In this document: positions 2,166 through 14,895 of the stretch, piece by piece
Numbering within the stretch: the stretch's first letter is position 1
Layout: every line of letters begins with the position of its first letter
Origin: a virus
Lineage: Duplodnaviria > Caudoviricetes
Reading direction: 5' to 3' (one strand)
DNA length: 64,000 nt
IMG/VR virus record: IMGVR_UViG_2061766007_000959
Notes under the pieces: model-generated
What the model saw: only the letters and a program-made list of their open reading frames with translations
What the model was told of the DNA's origin: nothing
Databases searched by the model: none
Position numbers and translations under genes: made by a program

Positions 2166-2910
2166 CACCAACACGCCCGTCAACTACGCCTACGTGTTGC
2201 CTGCGTTCGCCAACGGAAAGGAATACACGTTCACCGACCGTGTGAACATAATCGTCGGCGAGAACGGGTGCGGAAAGACGACGCTGTTGAAAATGCTACG
2301 GGCGTATCTGATGGTCTATCAGGACGAGTGCGGCAAGGGAATATACAATTCCGTCCTGCACACCGTTTATAATTGGACGTGTGACGAAATGAACGACGGT
2401 GCTGACGTTTACGCCGACTACCGCCTGAACACCTTTTCGATGTTCGCCGCCGAGGACAGACACCCTGACGTGGCTATGGAATCGTTCGAGCGTTTCGGTC
2501 AGGCTTACGAACTGAGCATAAGTTCAAAGGGTCAGAAGACGACATACGCGCTGTGTTCGCTGTTCGACAAGATTTTCAACAAGGGCGCGAACCTGACGTT
2601 CAACTACGAGGAGGTGTTCAAGGACTGCCCCTTGTATATCGACTACGTGAACAAGCACCGCGTGTTAGATTCCGAGAACACTTGGACTATTCTTATGGAC
2701 GAGCCTGACAACAGCGTTGATATTGAGCGCGTGTCCGAACTGTACAAGATATTCTCCGTACCAAAGGACAACACTCAGGTTATCGCCGTCATACACAACC
2801 CGTTCCTGATTGCCAAACTGTCAAAGGTCAAATCGGTCAATATGATTGAAATGTCAGACGGGTACGTCGAGAAAATCAATAACTTTGTGAGAAAATTCAA
2901 CAAGCTATGA
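2137..2910 (+). CDS. ABC/AAA-family ATPase
   Basis: Walker A GENGCGKTT, signature-like SKGQ, Walker B LMDEPD, H-loop VIHNP. Confidence 0.85.
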   Translation: MIQRIRITDNTNTPVNYAYVLPAFANGKEYTFTDRVNIIVGENGCGKTTLLKMLRAYLMVYQDECGKGIYNSVLHTVYNWTCDEMNDGADVYADYRLNTFSMFAAEDRHPDVAMESFERFGQAYELSISSKGQKTTYALCSLFDKIFNKGANLTFNYEEVFKDCPLYIDYVNKHRVLDSENTWTILMDEPDNSVDIERVSELYKIFSVPKDNTQVIAVIHNPFLIAKLSKVKSVNMIEMSDGYVEKINNFVRKFNKL

Positions 2911-3275
2911 CAACAGAGGATTTCGTGCCGTTCGAGACGGCTGTGCTTATGAGAGAGAAGGGTTTTGACACACCCTGTGACGAGGTTTACGATTCGGACG
3001 GAAACCTGTTCAACATTATGAACAAGCCGCTTGACGACTACGAATACTGTGCGCCAACGTTGGCTGTCGCCCTGAAATGGTTGCGAGAGACGCACGGTCT
3101 GTACGCGGACGTGTTCGTGATAGACTACGCCCCCGAGCCATGGGTGGCGAACATACACAGGTACAACGACGAAATCGAGTTGGTGTCCGTTTACAGGCAC
3201 AACGGCGAGTTTTTCAGGACATACGAGGACGCCGCCAATTTCATAATAAAAGTTTGTTTGGAAAAATTCTTATAA
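2907..3275 (+). CDS. paralogous family protein (…A..L.EKGF…APT…WLR…), copy 1
   Basis: EDFVPFETA.LMREKGF, APTLAVALKWLRE; motifs shared with the ORFs at 3404, 4799 and 12916. Confidence 0.75.
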   Translation: MTTEDFVPFETAVLMREKGFDTPCDEVYDSDGNLFNIMNKPLDDYEYCAPTLAVALKWLRETHGLYADVFVIDYAPEPWVANIHRYNDEIELVSVYRHNGEFFRTYEDAANFIIKVCLEKFL

Positions 3276-3797: not shown

Positions 3798-4037
3798 ATG
3801 TATCCGCAGATAGCTTACATAAGACTGACTGAATGGCAACAGCGAGCGATAAACGCGATAGCGTTCAACAACAACTATATGATTATCGCTCAGGATGTCA
3901 ACGGAAAGGCGTTTTTGGACTTGAACATAAGCGACGAACTACTGCAAGACGGTCTGAAGTCCATGTGTCAGGAGAACCCTCAGTTGTTGGATATGCTCAC
4001 CGACTTGGTGATAGACTTGCACACTGAGAAAAAATGA
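3798..4037 (+). CDS. hypothetical protein
   Basis: 79-aa ORF. Confidence 0.6.
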   Translation: MYPQIAYIRLTEWQQRAINAIAFNNNYMIIAQDVNGKAFLDLNISDELLQDGLKSMCQENPQLLDMLTDLVIDLHTEKK

Positions 4038-4096
4038 CTATATTCGCGTCCGAAAGGATGTTATTGTTAAACAAGGTTTGGGTAAATGCGTTTGAG

Positions 4097-4134
4097 AGCG
4101 GAATCGTGAAAAATTCCGCTTTTTTTATATATTT
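4097..4134 (+). terminator. intrinsic terminator abutting a TATATTTG promoter
   Basis: AGCGGAAT...ATTCCGCT plus T run, then TATATTTG. Confidence 0.55.
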
Positions 4135-4161
4135 GTCTGTAAACTTTAAAATTGCAAGAGG

Positions 4162-4356
4162 ATGGAAAGATTTAAGAACTATTGGATTGCCTTTTCAGGA
4201 ATGCTATTCGGTTTCCTGTTCGTTATGTGCGCCGTCGGCTCGACCGCTTGGCTTGTGACGGACGGACACTATGTTTTCGCTGTGGCGACCCTCGCGACGT
4301 CCTGTTTCGCCGCCAAACCTGTCAAAGAGTATTTTATCAAAACCGTCGTAATGTGA
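4162..4356 (+). CDS. small membrane protein
   Basis: Two hydrophobic helices. Confidence 0.6.
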   Translation: MERFKNYWIAFSGMLFGFLFVMCAVGSTAWLVTDGHYVFAVATLATSCFAAKPVKEYFIKTVVM

Positions 4357-4473
4357 AAACGTTGGTTGTTATCGCCGCTGTCCTGACGGTTCTTGTCAGG
4401 CGTCCGCTCAGGTGGCTTAAAGACGGATTCTACAAGTACAACTATTAGAGTTGTACTTTTTTTTGATTTTTTT

Positions 4474-4553
4474 TATAACAAGGTATTGTTATATTAAAAA
4501 GTTTTGTATATTTGCGATACCGTTTCAATAGTGGGGCGGAGAACTTTAAAACA
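4474..4553 (+). promoter_or_regulatory. conserved early-promoter module, copy 1 (palindrome + -7 box + leader hairpin + ACTTTAA)
   Basis: TATAACAA-N4-TTGTTATA; TATATTTG at 4507; hairpin CCGTTTCA-ATAG-TGGGGCGG; GAACTTTAAAACA. Confidence 0.8.
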
Positions 4554-4562
4554 ACAACAGCA

Positions 4563-4802
4563 ATGGATGATTCAAGATTGGTTTATCGAAGGATAACACG
4601 ACGGGAGGCTAAAATAATGTGTCTTGATGCGTTGTCCGCACAAGCGGATTCAATAATAGACGCTGGTTTTACCGACGAAAACGGCAAGCCTATCAATCTC
4701 GACAATAGAAGTATAATGTATTTAAACGAGGAGATTGATAAATTATGTTATGAATTAGAAAAACGGGCAAAAAAACTTAAACTAAAACAACAACAACTAT
4801 GA
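4563..4802 (+). CDS. hypothetical protein
   Basis: First ATG after the promoter module. Confidence 0.6.
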   Translation: MDDSRLVYRRITRREAKIMCLDALSAQADSIIDAGFTDENGKPINLDNRSIMYLNEEIDKLCYELEKRAKKLKLKQQQL

Positions 4803-6748: not shown

Positions 6749-7048
6749 ATGGGAAAGAAAAAAGTCAGAGAGCCGATATACTCGATACGGGTTTACTGTA
6801 AGAAGTGCGGCAAGTTGGTAATGGAGAGCGTGCGCCTGACGCACAAGCAACTGTTGGTGAATTGGGACGACGCGGTGTTCAAGGCGTGCGGAATATACTG
6901 TACGGACTGCAAGACCAAGCCGCCCGTCATAAACGACCTGAGAATTATGAACTACGCGCTCAACAAAGAGTTAGAGCCTCACTATGTGTTGCCGAAACCT
7001 GATTACAACATGGTCGAGGACGCCAAACATAAACTCGGAATAGCGTAA
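6749..7048 (+). CDS. Zn-ribbon protein
   Basis: CKKC and CTDC pairs. Confidence 0.6.
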   Translation: MGKKKVREPIYSIRVYCKKCGKLVMESVRLTHKQLLVNWDDAVFKACGIYCTDCKTKPPVINDLRIMNYALNKELEPHYVLPKPDYNMVEDAKHKLGIA

Positions 7049-7052
7049 GGTT

Positions 7053-7943
7053 ATGTTCTTTGAGAGCGCGATTTTCTACATGGGCAACAAGTACAAGTTG
7101 CTCAAATATATCATTCCCCTGTTCCCGACGGAATGCGCGACGTTCTACGACCTGTTCGGGGGTAGCGGCGTCGTGTCCATGAACTACAAGGCGGACAGAA
7201 AGGTTTACAACGAGTTCAACGGGAACATCGTCGCGTTACAGGAAATGATAAAACGCGAGGACATAGAACAGTTGGACAAAATGTACAGGAAAATCGTCGG
7301 CGAGTACGGTCTGAGGCAGAAGTCGAGCGGCGACCCGAAAAGGAACGAACAGGGTTTCCTGAGGCTCAGGGACGAGTACAACAAGTCACAGGACAGGGAC
7401 GTCCGTATTCTGTTCCTGTTGTGCTGTTATTCCATGAACAACATAATCAGGTTCAATTCCGACAACGAGTTCAACAGCAGTAACGGGAATCAGAGTTACA
7501 ACAAAATCATTAAAAACCGCCTGTTGGCTCACCACAGGCTGTTTCAGGACGTTGAAATTTGGAACAGGGACGTGTTCGACATAGATTTCTCACAGATAAC
7601 GGAAGGCGATTTTGTTTACCTCGACCCACCGTACCTGAACACGACAGCCGTTTATAACGAGAAACGTGCGTTCGGCAATTGGGACAGGGAATGTGACCTG
7701 AGGCTGTTCGGGCTGATAGACGGTCTGAACGAGCGGAACGTCAGGTTCGGTATGTCAAACGTGTTCGCGTGTCGGGGAAAGGAGAACACGCACCTGATTG
7801 AATGGTGCGCCGACAGAGGGTATCAGGTTCACCACCTCGACAGGGTCAAATACTATCCGTTCTCACGGGGTTCGTCGGGGAACGACGAGGTTTACATAAC
7901 AAACATAAAAACCAAAGTCGCTGAACAACTAACACTTTTTTAA
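7053..7943 (+). CDS. Dam/D12-class N6-adenine DNA methyltransferase
   Basis: YMGNKYKL, DLFGGSG (motif I), YLDPPY (motif IV); ends in QLTLF. Confidence 0.9.
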   Translation: MFFESAIFYMGNKYKLLKYIIPLFPTECATFYDLFGGSGVVSMNYKADRKVYNEFNGNIVALQEMIKREDIEQLDKMYRKIVGEYGLRQKSSGDPKRNEQGFLRLRDEYNKSQDRDVRILFLLCCYSMNNIIRFNSDNEFNSSNGNQSYNKIIKNRLLAHHRLFQDVEIWNRDVFDIDFSQITEGDFVYLDPPYLNTTAVYNEKRAFGNWDRECDLRLFGLIDGLNERNVRFGMSNVFACRGKENTHLIEWCADRGYQVHHLDRVKYYPFSRGSSGNDEVYITNIKTKVAEQLTLF

Positions 7944-7944
7944 T

Positions 7945-8622
7945 ATGCCAATATCAGAAGTTTACAACACAGATTGTATTGAGTATATGAGGGGTTTGCC
8001 TGACAAGGTGTTCGACCTTGCCGTGGCAGACCCCCCTTGACCATACGGAATCAAGCGAGACGGTCAGGAAAGGTCAATATGCAGGAATCCGAAACACAAC
8101 CGAAAGTATTTCGAGGCTAAGGGTTGGGACACGAAAACGCCCGACAAGGTCTTTTTCGACGAACTGTTCCGCGTCAGCAGGAATCAGATAATTTGGGGCG
8201 CGAACTATTTTCCCGAACACCTGACGCACTCTATGGGTTGGATTTTTTGGGACAAAGGTCAGCACGGTCTGTCCATGTCCGACGGGGAACTTGCGTACAC
8301 CTCGTTTCAACGGGCGTTGCGCGTCGTCACTATGAACAGAAGTGAACTCGCGAAAGAGGGTACTATCCATCCTTGCCAAAAGCCGATTCTATTGTACAGT
8401 TGGGTGTTGGACAACTACGCCAAGACAGGCGACAAGATATTCGACCCCATGATGGGGGCGCAGGGCAGTCGCATAGCCGCGTACAAGAAAGGTTTTGACT
8501 ATTACGGGTGTGAACTTGACAAGGAATATTACGACAAGGGTTGCGAGCGTTTCGAGCAGGAATGCCTCGGAATATACAGGCGTCCCGACGGTTCTGTCGT
8601 GCAACAGGCAAGTTTGTTTTGA
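7945..8622 (+). CDS. beta-class N6A/N4C DNA methyltransferase interrupted by an in-frame TGA inside DPPY (recoded or pseudogene)
   Basis: DCIEYMRGLPDKVFDLAVADPP*PYG...HPCQKP...FDPMMG in one frame; single TGA at 8038-8040; ends in QASLF. Confidence 0.8.
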
Positions 8623-8656
8623 CAGTTTGTAAAAATACTGTATATTTGCTGTCACT

Positions 8657-9244
8657 ATGAGTAATGATAAAGTTACAGCATCGGAACAGTTTAAGAGCCG
8701 TATTTGGCTCGAATACCCCGTACCGAGGGAGTTTTCGGTTTGGGGCGGTGACTTGGTACACACCCTGCCGTTAGAAGACCTTGACGCGCTGATTGAAATG
8801 TGTGTCGAGGACGTTGCGACAGACATTGTGATTCGTGAACACAAGCAGGCGACGGGTCTCGCGACGCCGATGCCTGCGGACACGGTGACAGTCCTGTACG
8901 CTAACCTCGACTTTCCGTATCAGGGCAACAGGCAGGTCAAGGCGTCATACGACCATTCGCTCAAACAGGCGTTTCTCAGGTCGTTCCCTGCCGTTATCGT
9001 CTATCAGAGGAAAATGCACGTCGAGGACATAGACAGGTTGCAGGGCGACAGGCTGATTTATTTCAGGTACTATGTAATGAACAAGATGGCGACGTTGGAA
9101 CTGTCATACCTCAAAACTATGAGTATGAACGTTGACAACGGCAATATCGACTTGGAGACGCTAAAAGAGTTCGCCAACAAGACCGAGGTGAAAGTCAAGG
9201 ACTTGCGCGAGAGCATACTTATTTACGCGGTAAGCAACGGATAA
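8657..9244 (+). CDS. putative head-tail adaptor/neck protein
   Basis: Size and helical C-terminus resemble adaptor proteins; has its own TATATTTG promoter at 8641. Function is inferred. Confidence 0.35.
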   Translation: MSNDKVTASEQFKSRIWLEYPVPREFSVWGGDLVHTLPLEDLDALIEMCVEDVATDIVIREHKQATGLATPMPADTVTVLYANLDFPYQGNRQVKASYDHSLKQAFLRSFPAVIVYQRKMHVEDIDRLQGDRLIYFRYYVMNKMATLELSYLKTMSMNVDNGNIDLETLKEFANKTEVKVKDLRESILIYAVSNG

Positions 9245-9262
9245 ACTTAAAACTATAAGACT

Positions 9263-10801
9263 ATGAATTTTAAGAATTTAATGGGCGTAAAGACCGCAAG
9301 ACGGTCAAGCCTGAATAAAGTTAGGGACAGCCGTCGTATCAGTGACGGTCTAAGCACAGAGGAATATACTGAACTGAAAAAACAATTCGGTTCGTTCGTT
9401 GCTCAGAACAGACGTGATATTAAGAAAGTGTCTTTGGGCGACCGTGATATTGACGGTACACGTACATTTTTTGAGTTTAACACATATTATGTGGACAACG
9501 AGTTGTCTAATCAGACTATTGAGGAAATCAAAGACTATTACGAGAACGTCGCGTCAACATACGGTGAGTATCTGAATTACCGTAACACAAAGATACAGGA
9601 AATGTCTTACAGTGAAGAGGATGAGGTGCTGAATGATTTGATAGTTGAATTTTCAGAATACTTACAGGGTCGGTATGACGACAACACCTTGCGTGATTTT
9701 CTTTTACAAGCCGTTGTTTACGGTGGTACAGAGGGTATCGATGCGTTTGAAAAGAAACTTTTTGCCGCGCTCGGTGTTCAGAATAGCGAGGAAATAGAAG
9801 ACTATTTCGCTACCAATCCGAAAAACGTACAGTCTAAGTTTGAAATAGGTGATTCTGTCGAATACCAACAGAACAGTCATACTATTATCGCTGAAATAAC
9901 CGACAAAGAGTTTGGTTGGGAAGGTTGGGTTTATGCGATAGAAGGTGTTGACGAGAGCGGTGACTATTGGAAAGTTGAGTTGATGAGCGGCGGTGTTTCT
10001 GAGAAAAAACTAAAACCGCAGATTCCTGTTTCCGATTCCCGTAAGGTCAAAGACGGTTTAGAGTATAATTATATCTATGAGTTGGACGATATGATTAACG
10101 AAAAACCTATTGACGAGGTTATTAAAATGTTGGGTGATGATTGGACGCTGTCGAGGGATTTCACAGATGATAGTGTTATTGGTAAGCCGTGGCAGACTTG
10201 GTATTACGAGTTTGTTAGCGGTGACACAAAACAGGACGGTGACGAAGAATACTTAATATTGGGTACTATGAACAAAGGTGGCAGGGTATTTTATGTGAGT
10301 ACAAACTGTAATCAACCGCGTTTTGTAAGACCTCACAGACTTTCCGACAGTCGTCGTGTGAAAGATTCTTTGGGCGAGGACGAATACGAGGAATACCTGA
10401 ACGAACTCGGTGAGGGTCTTGACGAGGACGAGTTTATTATGGGTGGTGAATCGCGTCTCGGTATGCCTTACGGTACAGCAATGCGTCAGTACGACCCGAT
10501 AGCGTTCAACGTGGGTTACGACGAGTGGGTGCGCGAGAACGAAGACGATGACGACGAGTACAAGTTGGAACAGATTGCCGACCTTCTCGAAGAGGGCTAT
10601 CGTTCAGGCTATGACCCACAATGGGACTTAGACGTTACTGTTGACGGTCAGGATATTTCCGAGTTCAACGATGACGACAAAGACCTGATTTATCAGGACA
10701 TCGCATACGTTGTGAAAGACGGTTACGACAACTATCAGGGAATCGAGACCGAACTGTCTGACGGTTCTATCGTCTATGTTGATTTCACTCTGAATTATTG
10801 A
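9263..10801 (+). CDS. acidic multidomain polyprotein with repeated DSRRVKD-like linkers
   Basis: VRDSRRISD, VSDSRKVKD and LSDSRRVKD separate D/E/Y-rich modules. Confidence 0.75.
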   Translation: MNFKNLMGVKTARRSSLNKVRDSRRISDGLSTEEYTELKKQFGSFVAQNRRDIKKVSLGDRDIDGTRTFFEFNTYYVDNELSNQTIEEIKDYYENVASTYGEYLNYRNTKIQEMSYSEEDEVLNDLIVEFSEYLQGRYDDNTLRDFLLQAVVYGGTEGIDAFEKKLFAALGVQNSEEIEDYFATNPKNVQSKFEIGDSVEYQQNSHTIIAEITDKEFGWEGWVYAIEGVDESGDYWKVELMSGGVSEKKLKPQIPVSDSRKVKDGLEYNYIYELDDMINEKPIDEVIKMLGDDWTLSRDFTDDSVIGKPWQTWYYEFVSGDTKQDGDEEYLILGTMNKGGRVFYVSTNCNQPRFVRPHRLSDSRRVKDSLGEDEYEEYLNELGEGLDEDEFIMGGESRLGMPYGTAMRQYDPIAFNVGYDEWVRENEDDDDEYKLEQIADLLEEGYRSGYDPQWDLDVTVDGQDISEFNDDDKDLIYQDIAYVVKDGYDNYQGIETELSDGSIVYVDFTLNY

Positions 10802-13764: not shown

Positions 13765-14895
13765 ATGAAATTAGATTTGAAAACATTTCTGCCTAAGTTA
13801 GCATTAGCAAAGAAAGTGATAAACCCGAAACCCGTCATCACGGTTCAGGGGTGTTTCCTGTTGCGTTCCAAGGACGGTATGCTGTATGTGAACGCGTCCG
13901 ACACCGAGAACACTGTTTCGGTCGGCGTTAAGCCGTTGGAATATTCGGAAATGAATATCTGCGTCAACGCGAACGATTTTTACAGCGCGTTACTGAACCT
14001 CAGGGGCGAGGAAATAGAACTGACGCTCAACCCCGAGAAAAAACTTGTGCGTTGCGCCTACAAGAGCGGTTTTTTCCAACTGCCCTACACGGACGACGAA
14101 AATTCAAGCGCGGTGCTTGAAATACAGCCGAGCGACTATGTTATCGACAAGGACATAGACGACACGTTCACCCTGTCAGAGGCTATAATGAAAGCCGAAA
14201 TAGCGGCGTCAGAGGACAACCTGAAACCTATCCTGTGCGGTGTGCATTTCGATTTCAGGCAGGACGGAATGGTCGTTGTCGCCTGTGATTCGAGAAAACT
14301 GTCGAAATACAAGACCAACATAACGTTCGACATGGACAGAAAGGGTTTCGTAATGCCAAAGAAAGGCGCGAACATACTCACCTCTCTGATGTCGGAATAC
14401 GAGAGTGACACGGTCAATATGAAGGCAAGCGACAACCGCGTCCTGTTCACGGGCGAGGCTTACACGCTTTCGGTCGTCCTGACAGAGGGCGTTTTCCCCT
14501 CGTACGACGCGCTGATTCCTACGGACAACGTGTTCTGCGCGACCGTCAAGAGAAACGCAATGCTGAACGCCGTACAGCGCGTAGCACCTATGGAGAGCGA
14601 CAAGGACGAAATGCTTTTAATCAACTTTGACAAGAACGCCATGATAATCGAGGCAGAAGACGTGTTCCTGAAAAAGAAAGCCAAAGAGAAAGTGTCCTGC
14701 CTGTACGACGGCGAGCCTATGAGAATCGGTATGAAGTCAGACAACGTGATAACGCTGTTGCAGGCGTTGGACAGCGACGACGTCGAGGTTCATTTCAAAA
14801 CACCGAACACAGCCATTGTCATTCTGCCGCTGTCAGAAATGAAAGAGCGTCTGTTGACACTCTGTATGCCTATGATTATATCATACAACAAATAA
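13765..14895 (+). CDS. dnaN: DNA polymerase III beta sliding clamp
   Basis: 376 aa; ASDTE, PILCGVHF, ACDSRKL, EGVFPSY, LCMPM motifs. Confidence 0.9.
   Translation: MKLDLKTFLPKLALAKKVINPKPVITVQGCFLLRSKDGMLYVNASDTENTVSVGVKPLEYSEMNICVNANDFYSALLNLRGEEIELTLNPEKKLVRCAYKSGFFQLPYTDDENSSAVLEIQPSDYVIDKDIDDTFTLSEAIMKAEIAASEDNLKPILCGVHFDFRQDGMVVVACDSRKLSKYKTNITFDMDRKGFVMPKKGANILTSLMSEYESDTVNMKASDNRVLFTGEAYTLSVVLTEGVFPSYDALIPTDNVFCATVKRNAMLNAVQRVAPMESDKDEMLLINFDKNAMIIEAEDVFLKKKAKEKVSCLYDGEPMRIGMKSDNVITLLQALDSDDVEVHFKTPNTAIVILPLSEMKERLLTLCMPMIISYNK

Follow-up and report, generated by a model that had tools for sequence, protein, structure and literature searches.

A gene for a beta-class DNA methyltransferase (MTase) in the genome of this cattle-rumen phage carries an in-frame TGA within its catalytic motif IV, and comparative evidence lends good support to site-specific recoding of that stop codon. 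The stop lies between two proline codons (GAC CCC CCT TGA CCA TAC, codons 29-34) that can be read by the same peptidyl-tRNA. The best single reading of the locus, to which a probability of roughly 45% is assigned, is a stop-hop in which the ribosome would leave CCU, pass over 6 nt and land on CCA, thereby restoring the family motif DPPY. The cassette CCT-TGA-CCA is found in all alleles of the gene that were compared, on both sides of which the reading frame is under constraint, and also in a second MTase gene of the same genome.

The interrupted methyltransferase gene

The window analysed here is a stretch of 64,000 nucleotides that corresponds to positions 414-64413 on the minus strand of a 142,338-bp IMG/VR record, which has direct terminal repeats and is rated complete. 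Nearly all genes of the window lie on its plus strand. The MTase gene that begins at position 7945 (paralogue 1 in what follows) sits within a replication and DNA-metabolism module, where its neighbours are a DnaA_C-like HTH protein, a D12-class MTase, a sliding clamp and a helicase (Table 1). The TAA of the D12-class MTase ends 1 nt 5' of the ATG at 7945.

The original prediction had described a frame running from this ATG through the TGA and on into an otherwise intact MTase with the motifs HPCQKP and FDPMMG and the C-terminal residues QASLF, and all of these features were confirmed in the sequence. The part behind the TGA is free of stops up to the terminator TGA at 8620-8622. Gene callers split both beta-class MTases of this genome into a 31- or 55-aa ORF and a 129-183-aa ORF, and do so in every assembly; the 31-aa ORF called on many independent contigs is the first part of the MTase. 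Two proteins that had been clustered with the 55-aa ORF (P0131 and P0133, of 529 and 312 aa) were rejected as unrelated and mis-clustered.

Two further features of the neighbourhood were recorded. Directly downstream lie conserved proteins of 195 aa (8657-9244) and 512 aa (9263-10801), for which no Pfam or PHROG match was found. Both MTases of the locus (8602-8622 and 7923-7943) and many of the homologues P0001-P0120 end in ...L(S/T/K)LF or in LF followed by one or two residues, an ending that fits a beta-clamp-binding motif, and the phage encodes its own clamp (13765-14895).

Table 1. Coordinates of the features discussed in the text (positions in the window unless a genome record is named).
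Feature	Position	Strand	Remarks
D12-class (Dam-like) adenine MTase, intact	7053..7943	+	PF02086, E 6.5e-27; phrog_56
MTase part 1	7945..8037	+	31 codons, start Met to A-D-P-P; last codon CCT 8035-8037
Tract identical to paralogue 2, 78 nt	7975..8052	+	Gene conversion footprint
Candidate recoding cassette CCT-TGA-CCA	8035..8043	+	Candidate take-off Pro, UGA then C, candidate landing Pro
In-frame TGA stop	8038..8040	+	Reading of sequence and frame
MTase part 2, P-Y-G-I ... HPCQKP ... FDPMMG ... QQASLF	8041..8622	+	Same frame as part 1
Paralogue 2	G000:C1 about 118255-118950	minus	59% protein identity; outside the window, 62 kb away

Protein family and motif IV

The gene at 7945 encodes a beta-class N6-adenine/N4-cytosine DNA MTase. 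It matches PF01555 (N6_N4_Mtase) with 35.1 bits, against a cut-off of 26.7, and phrog_67, and a Foldseek search with its AF2 model retrieves CcrM (6pbd, E 3e-11) as well as M.BceJIV, MboIIA, RsrI and PvuII. The motifs follow the order of the beta class, with ADPP..PY (codons 28-34) preceding FDPMMGAQG (about codons 166-174). Under standard decoding, motif IV, (D/S)PP(Y/F/W), is split by the TGA and is restored in only two ways, by a hop (DPPY) or by readthrough with tryptophan (DPPW).

Motif IV is nearly invariant in the relatives of this enzyme. Among the best 120 of 7,898 homologues it reads DPPY[G/E] in 111 and DPEY in 7; of the other two, one is the truncated ORF cluster of the window itself and one is a protein whose DPPY lies beyond the 70 residues scanned. 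Neither DPPW nor a pair of extra residues at the motif occurs in any of these 120 proteins, and the homologues carry CCN CCN TAC only, without extra codons. Relative to its family, the gene carries exactly 6 additional nucleotides, one proline codon plus the TGA, and deletion of exactly 6 nt gives back the invariant DPPY-G-I.

A split homologue in Bacteroides phage LoVEphage (OY731444; L001, 1501-2173) was considered as a further instance of the cassette and rejected. It has DPQY in place of DPPY, and a frameshift in a C9 run splits its MTase; this frameshift has nothing to do with the cassette and could stem from homopolymer phase variation or from an error of sequencing.

The stop codon in independent assemblies

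The cassette was found in every related contig that was fetched, from bovine and other ruminant gut assemblies in at least 8 data sets, and it is identical in 11 of 11 alleles (7 of paralogue 1 and 4 of paralogue 2). Four additional sequencing runs, from 4 other studies, yielded contigs that span the site, with no indel and no substitution at the TGA; these are Logan contigs, not raw reads, in which minority variants lacking the 6 nt could be missed.

TGA is an ordinary terminator in this phage, this gene included. Its use as a normal stop elsewhere in the window, which the original prediction had asserted, is borne out by the 23 of 63 non-nested plus-strand ORFs of at least 100 aa that it terminates, 6 of them as TGA-C. 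The MTase gene's own terminal TGA falls at the conserved C-terminus of the family, ...SLF. The whole 142 kb holds no suppressor tRNA, its sole tRNA being a tRNA-Glu, and no other Rfam family was found in the window.

Purifying selection across the stop

If the interrupted frame yields a functional enzyme, its two parts are expected to evolve as one gene. All paralogue-1 alleles carry the cassette, including those of L016 and L020 (96% nucleotide identity) and the more diverged L018 (91%). Nei-Gojobori counts between the window and L018 give Sd 37/136 and Nd 25/536, a pN/pS of 0.17 (binomial p 1.5e-11 against neutrality). For codons 1-31 the ratio is 0.04 (Sd 7, Nd 1; p 1e-4), for codons 33-96, which span the stop to the first in-frame ATG, it is 0.20 (p 2e-3), and for codons 97-225 it is again 0.20 (p 2e-6). 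Cassette-bearing alleles of paralogue 2 (G000, L022, L024/L025, L027) show values of 0.17-0.26, and for the genes as a whole the values lie between 0.07 and 0.26. A further stop or frameshift occurs in 0 of 11 alleles. These comparisons indicate that purifying selection holds both gene parts as a single reading frame.

A separately translated C-terminal fragment was considered as the source of this constraint and rejected. There is no in-frame ATG, GTG or TTG between the stop and codon 97; L018 lacks the ATG at codon 97 and has a GTG of its own at codon 45. With no conserved restart codon, such a fragment cannot account for the constraint on codons 33-96.

The test proposed at the outset was whether a Pro-stop-Pro arrangement is kept in diverged relatives, with constraint downstream. 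Both were found (pN/pS 0.20 downstream of the stop), a result that favours recoding over a unique or decaying pseudogene. The same proposal had named, as evidence against recoding, close relatives with plain DPPY and a copy that is unique or decaying. Relatives with plain DPPY do exist, at amino acid identities of 72% or less, whereas the copy in the window is neither unique nor decaying; no cassette-less relative of paralogue 1 above 72% amino acid identity was found among 5.8 billion proteins.

How long the cassette has resided in these alleles affects the weight of this argument. Between the window and L018, the MTase shows about three times the synonymous divergence of the flanking genes (pS 0.27 against 0.08-0.14, over 7053-9244), which suggests that the MTase is a hot-spot of allele exchange. 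The identity tract around the cassette in this pair measures 41 nt, a length that is not unusual for the two sequences, and the cassette could be younger than the alleles that carry it. Recent entry of the patch into each allele would mean that part of the constraint arose before it, and would weaken the argument from dN/dS. Vertical inheritance of the cassette in paralogue 1 is judged more parsimonious than repeated recent conversion.

A second paralogue and its conversion history

The presence of the same cassette in a second paralogue, together with its history of conversion, is a new observation of this analysis. The two paralogues are the only PF01555 genes of the genome. Paralogue 2 reads the identical GAC CCC CCT TGA CCA TAC and is indistinguishable from paralogue 1 throughout the tract given in Table 1, whereas elsewhere the two genes share about 70% DNA identity. 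An orthologue of paralogue 2 with 92% identity (P0100, locus L023) is uninterrupted and reads ...GAT TTG ACG GTC TGT GAC CCA CCA TAC GGA ATC.... When compared with this orthologue, paralogue 2 carries the 6 nt and a cluster of more than 10 substitutions, each of which agrees with paralogue 1. The cassette thus reached paralogue 2 by short-patch gene conversion, with paralogue 1 as the donor. The 3' edge of the conversion tract lies within about 12 nt of the stop in paralogue 2.

Cassette-bearing forms of paralogue 2 occur in at least three diverged lineages (G000/L022, L024/L025 and L027). A small maximum-likelihood tree places the cassette-less L023 beside L024/L025 (bootstrap 62) and G000 with L027 in the other clade (84). 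Because the cassette-less gene groups with cassette-bearing ones, the patch was probably transferred into paralogue 2 more than once. No 'repaired' paralogue 1, free of the 6 nt, was present among the alleles examined.

Several peculiarities of individual contigs touch on these genes. L023 encodes an extra PF01555 MTase of 265 aa (3889-4686) directly 3' of its uninterrupted paralogue 2, a gene that L024, L025 and G000, which bear the cassette, do not have. In L024, which comes from an African-cattle assembly, paralogue 2 (about 2573-3238) has lost 30 nt in frame, and with them the conserved ...ATDFADCELAWTN... stretch; the deletion may be a first sign of decay in one lineage, or else an assembly artefact. 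The window and its own genome record, G000, differ at exactly 6 nt in 64 kb, all of them at 7959-7974, in the 5' end of the MTase gene and outside the cassette. There G000 resembles paralogue 2, either because the conversion tract was longer or because the assembly took another path through the two-copy repeat of about 100 nt. In contig L007 (1-3757; ERZ1772556 NODE_165), the upstream context of paralogue 2 and its first codons run on into the body of paralogue 1 and its downstream gene, which reflects either a chimeric assembly across the repeat or true recombination.

Proposed passage of the stop by hopping

Under the preferred reading, the gene would specify a working beta-class MTase from an mRNA with a programmed recoding site inside catalytic motif IV. 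Ribosomes would translate up to ...A-D-P-P and stall there, with CCU in the P site paired to peptidyl-tRNA(Pro) and the A site occupied by UGA-C. Termination would follow in most cases and yield a peptide of 31 residues. On a minority of ribosomes, peptidyl-tRNA(Pro) would unpair from CCU, the mRNA would slip by 6 nt, and the tRNA would re-pair with CCA. UAC (Tyr) would be decoded next, and the enzyme would have the family consensus ...ADPPYGI..., with 9 nt specifying one proline. The tryptic peptide of this product would be VFDLAVADPPYGIK.

The local sequence has several properties that are known to favour such an event. In E. coli, few contexts terminate as slowly as a stop that follows Pro-Pro or Asp-Pro, and the D-P-P that precedes this TGA should prolong the pause. 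Slow stops with a P-site tRNA that is able to re-pair are 'shifty', and CCU_UGA is also the pair that closes tnaC of E. coli, a classic RF2-arrest site (PMC3082878). tRNA-Pro(UGG) decodes all four proline codons and is prone to re-pairing (PMC4519876). In E. coli, ribosomes have been reported to hop over stops that were placed between matched codons in synthetic constructs (Weiss 1987, as cited in PMC5009743; bioRxiv 10.1101/2022.08.31.505936). On the other side of the balance, such synthetic hops are inefficient, at about 1%, and passage of the present stop, if by hopping rather than by readthrough, would be of low efficiency. A 2016 review states of natural in-frame stop-hops that 'no occurrences are known', and adds that some supposed readthroughs might really be hops (PMC5009743).

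The matching of the flanking codons can be weighed against chance. By estimate, a random in-frame insert that bears a stop would give a matching flanking codon about once in 16 cases. In a genome-wide survey of same-frame ORF pairs split by one stop, matching flanking codons were found only at the two MTases. The take-off and landing codons show no variation among the 11 alleles, so that codon matching cannot be shown to be selected. The RNA fold of 8000-8110 has a z-score of -1.0, which is not better than shuffles, and no conserved RNA structure was found, the predicted stem partner at 8062-8068 being mutated in L018 and absent in paralogue 2.

Other shifts of frame were tried and rejected. 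A change in the length of the C6 run or transcriptional slippage, like -1 slippage on C_CCC_CCU or +1 slippage at CCU_U, leads to frames without MTase homology, and the earlier statement that altering the C6 run would not restore the motif holds.

Readthrough as the principal alternative

The TGA may instead be read through, whether in a programmed or a leaky manner, by a near-cognate Trp-tRNA or another tRNA acting on UGA-C during the Pro-Pro pause. The product would contain ...ADPPWPYGI..., in which tryptophan fills the aromatic slot of motif IV (DPPW), followed by Pro-Tyr as a two-residue loop insert, and its tryptic peptide would be VFDLAVADPPWPYGIK. Conservation and purifying selection speak for readthrough exactly as they do for the hop. 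The stop context here is UGA followed by C, natural cases of readthrough are far better documented than those of hopping, and HMMER aligns the tryptophan with the tyrosine of CcrM's DPPY. DPPW is, moreover, a functional motif IV in MT-A70-type beta-class MTases (PMC7544214).

The family of this enzyme argues in the other direction, given that the best 120 of its 7,898 homologues offer neither DPPW nor the two-residue insert. AF2 confidence in block 31-40 of the readthrough product is 65, against 85 in the intact control P0001, a weak indication that is silent on activity. A change of TGG to TGA at a tryptophan codon of the gene would have been a simpler route to readthrough, with a wild-type product, and a 6-nt insert with matched codons would be left unexplained. 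Readthrough is on these grounds a serious but doubtful explanation, and both products may be made. Of the two parts of the original prediction, recoding is supported by the comparative constraint, whereas the specific 6-nt hop does not stand alone, since tryptophan readthrough is also compatible with the sequence.

A possible non-functional or selfish patch

It is unlikely, and more so than readthrough, that the insert has no function in expression. It would then be an inactivating or selfish patch of 6 nt that spread recently among alleles and paralogues by short-patch conversion or recombination, either because loss of methylation was favoured or because the site was protected from a nuclease, in genes that look intact because the time elapsed is short. 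Conversion in short tracts from paralogue 1 to paralogue 2 is directly visible, probably at least twice, as such a history would predict, and MTase alleles are mosaics relative to their flanks. The tract of cassette identity shared by the window and L018 is only 41 nt long, and the deletion in paralogue 2 of L024 also counts in favour of this view.

The distribution of the cassette is harder to reconcile with it. The cassette is present in every paralogue-1 allele, although synonymous divergence among these reaches pS 0.27, and the databases yielded no close allele without it; several independent conversions of 41-140 nt, or the fixation of a drive, would be needed to produce this pattern. None of the 11 alleles has acquired an additional stop or frameshift. 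A mere null allele would not be expected to contain an in-frame insert whose flanking codons match and whose omission gives back the consensus, and the genome encodes no HNH or HNH_3 homing endonuclease. Relaxed selection, extra lesions and a sporadic distribution, as would mark a pseudogene, were not observed, with the L024 deletion as the one exception. The pseudogene that had been offered as the alternative to recoding is disfavoured by the low pN/pS, the lack of further lesions and the occurrence of the cassette in all close relatives.

Explanations of other kinds retain very little probability. An assembly or sequencing error, or a code in which TGA is sense (code 4/25, or a phage suppressor tRNA), is effectively refuted: the frame would be open if TGA encoded tryptophan, but the same cassette recurs in independent assemblies of many studies and at two loci of one genome, and the termination of ORFs by TGA and the tRNA and Rfam content described above contradict a change of code.

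Distribution and host

A megablast search of 7000-10000 against phage records gave no match, and a degenerate cassette pattern (TRR at the stop) had 0 matches in JGI metagenome contigs. In IMG/VR the cassette pattern was found only in L022, a near-identical fragment that carries paralogue 2. A search of 185,579 reference genomes returned two chance matches, in high-GC non-MTase DNA, and no prophage or host. All samples that hold the cassette are from ruminant gut. The best phage matches are to Bacteroides, Flavobacterium and Cellulophaga phages, and paralogue 2 is preceded by a promoter of the TTTG ... TAnnTTTG type. A host among the Bacteroidota is probable.

Possible role and significance

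One possible role of the insert is to attenuate the two beta-class MTases or to make their expression conditional, with normal production of the Dam-like enzyme; the low MTase expression of the original prediction is a conjecture of this kind. The second paralogue and the history of conversion raise a further possibility, namely that the insert functions at the level of DNA. It may alter a DNA site, for example to give immunity to a site-specific nuclease, and be tolerated as ribosomes pass it. An immunity patch would explain spread by short-patch gene conversion, and conversion tracts that are one-directional, centred on a break and very short fit this idea.

The fuller account is tentative and carries slightly less assurance than the hop itself. 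In this account, a natural in-frame stop-hop, in which 9 nt specify one proline of DPPY, would have been selected in both beta-class MTases, the patch would spread between paralogues and alleles by biased gene conversion, and the whole would perhaps be a minimal counterpart, free of a nuclease gene, of the bypass and immunity system of T4 gene 60. If a DNA-level immunity patch does operate through recoding here, homing-like gene conversion would be linked to bypass in a far smaller form than in T4 gene 60.

The locus is also of practical interest. Stop-hops were made in the laboratory in 1987, and this site is a small, clean and testable candidate for a natural in-frame case. It is only 9 nt long, and the products of hopping and readthrough differ by two residues within one tryptic peptide. 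Natural controls exist in the cassette-less orthologue (P0100/L023) and in a Gly-Gly analogue (L036, see below). The splitting of ORFs by gene callers hides enzymes of this kind from predictions of methylomes and of anti-restriction functions.

Comparison with known systems

The synthetic E. coli stop-hops (Weiss, Dunn, Atkins & Gesteland 1987), as far as they are described in the secondary literature, resemble the present site, as read here, in that matched codons flank the stop, 9 nt would specify one amino acid, and a slow stop in the A site would set off the hop without help from a long-range RNA signal. Those sites were engineered, whereas this one is natural, lies in a catalytic motif and is conserved in two paralogues and many alleles. 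It also differs in its codons, which are proline codons after a Pro-Pro pause.

Readthrough in phages is exemplified by the Qbeta A1 protein, where a leaky, programmed UGA gives a minority of longer product. A leaky UGA and a conserved downstream frame are common to both cases. Readthrough of the Qbeta type extends a complete protein by an added domain, whereas here the stop splits a catalytic motif, and a readthrough product would deviate from an invariant sequence.

T4 gene 60 shares with this locus an insert in a conserved coding site and horizontal movement by recombination, and there, in association with a mobA homing-endonuclease cassette, the insert protects the site from the nuclease (PMC5009743; bioRxiv 10.1101/2022.08.31.505936; PMC5462505). 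The gap is 50 nt in T4 gene 60 and 6 nt here. In contrast to gene 60, this site has no take-off stem-loop and no evident nascent-peptide signal beyond D-P-P, and no endonuclease gene is adjacent to it or present anywhere in the genome: no PF01844 or PF13392 match was found in the 142 kb, and the neighbouring ORFs are without nuclease motifs. The frame, moreover, is unchanged across the gap, so that readthrough is a live alternative here.

The closest parallels come from other phage MTases. A scan of IMG/VR for A-D-P-P-Y-G-TGA gave 10 matches, 2 of them in genuine MTase genes. L036 (287-345) reads DPPY-GGT-TGA-GGA-TTACKWD, with a 6-nt in-frame stop insert between two glycine codons, and L031 (1056-1100) reads DPPYG-TGA-ATT-AGC-TTACKWD, with a 9-nt insert and a 188-aa HTH-containing ORF just upstream. 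The gene at 7945 belongs with these two, as phage beta-class MTases with a stop in the neighbourhood of the active site. In L036 and L031 the TGA follows DPPYG, whereas here it falls inside the motif, between the second proline and the tyrosine, and the flanking pair is Pro/Pro here as opposed to Gly/Gly in L036. The present case is set apart by the lack of a nuclease gene, by the occurrence of the cassette in two paralogues of one genome and by its conversion from one paralogue to the other.
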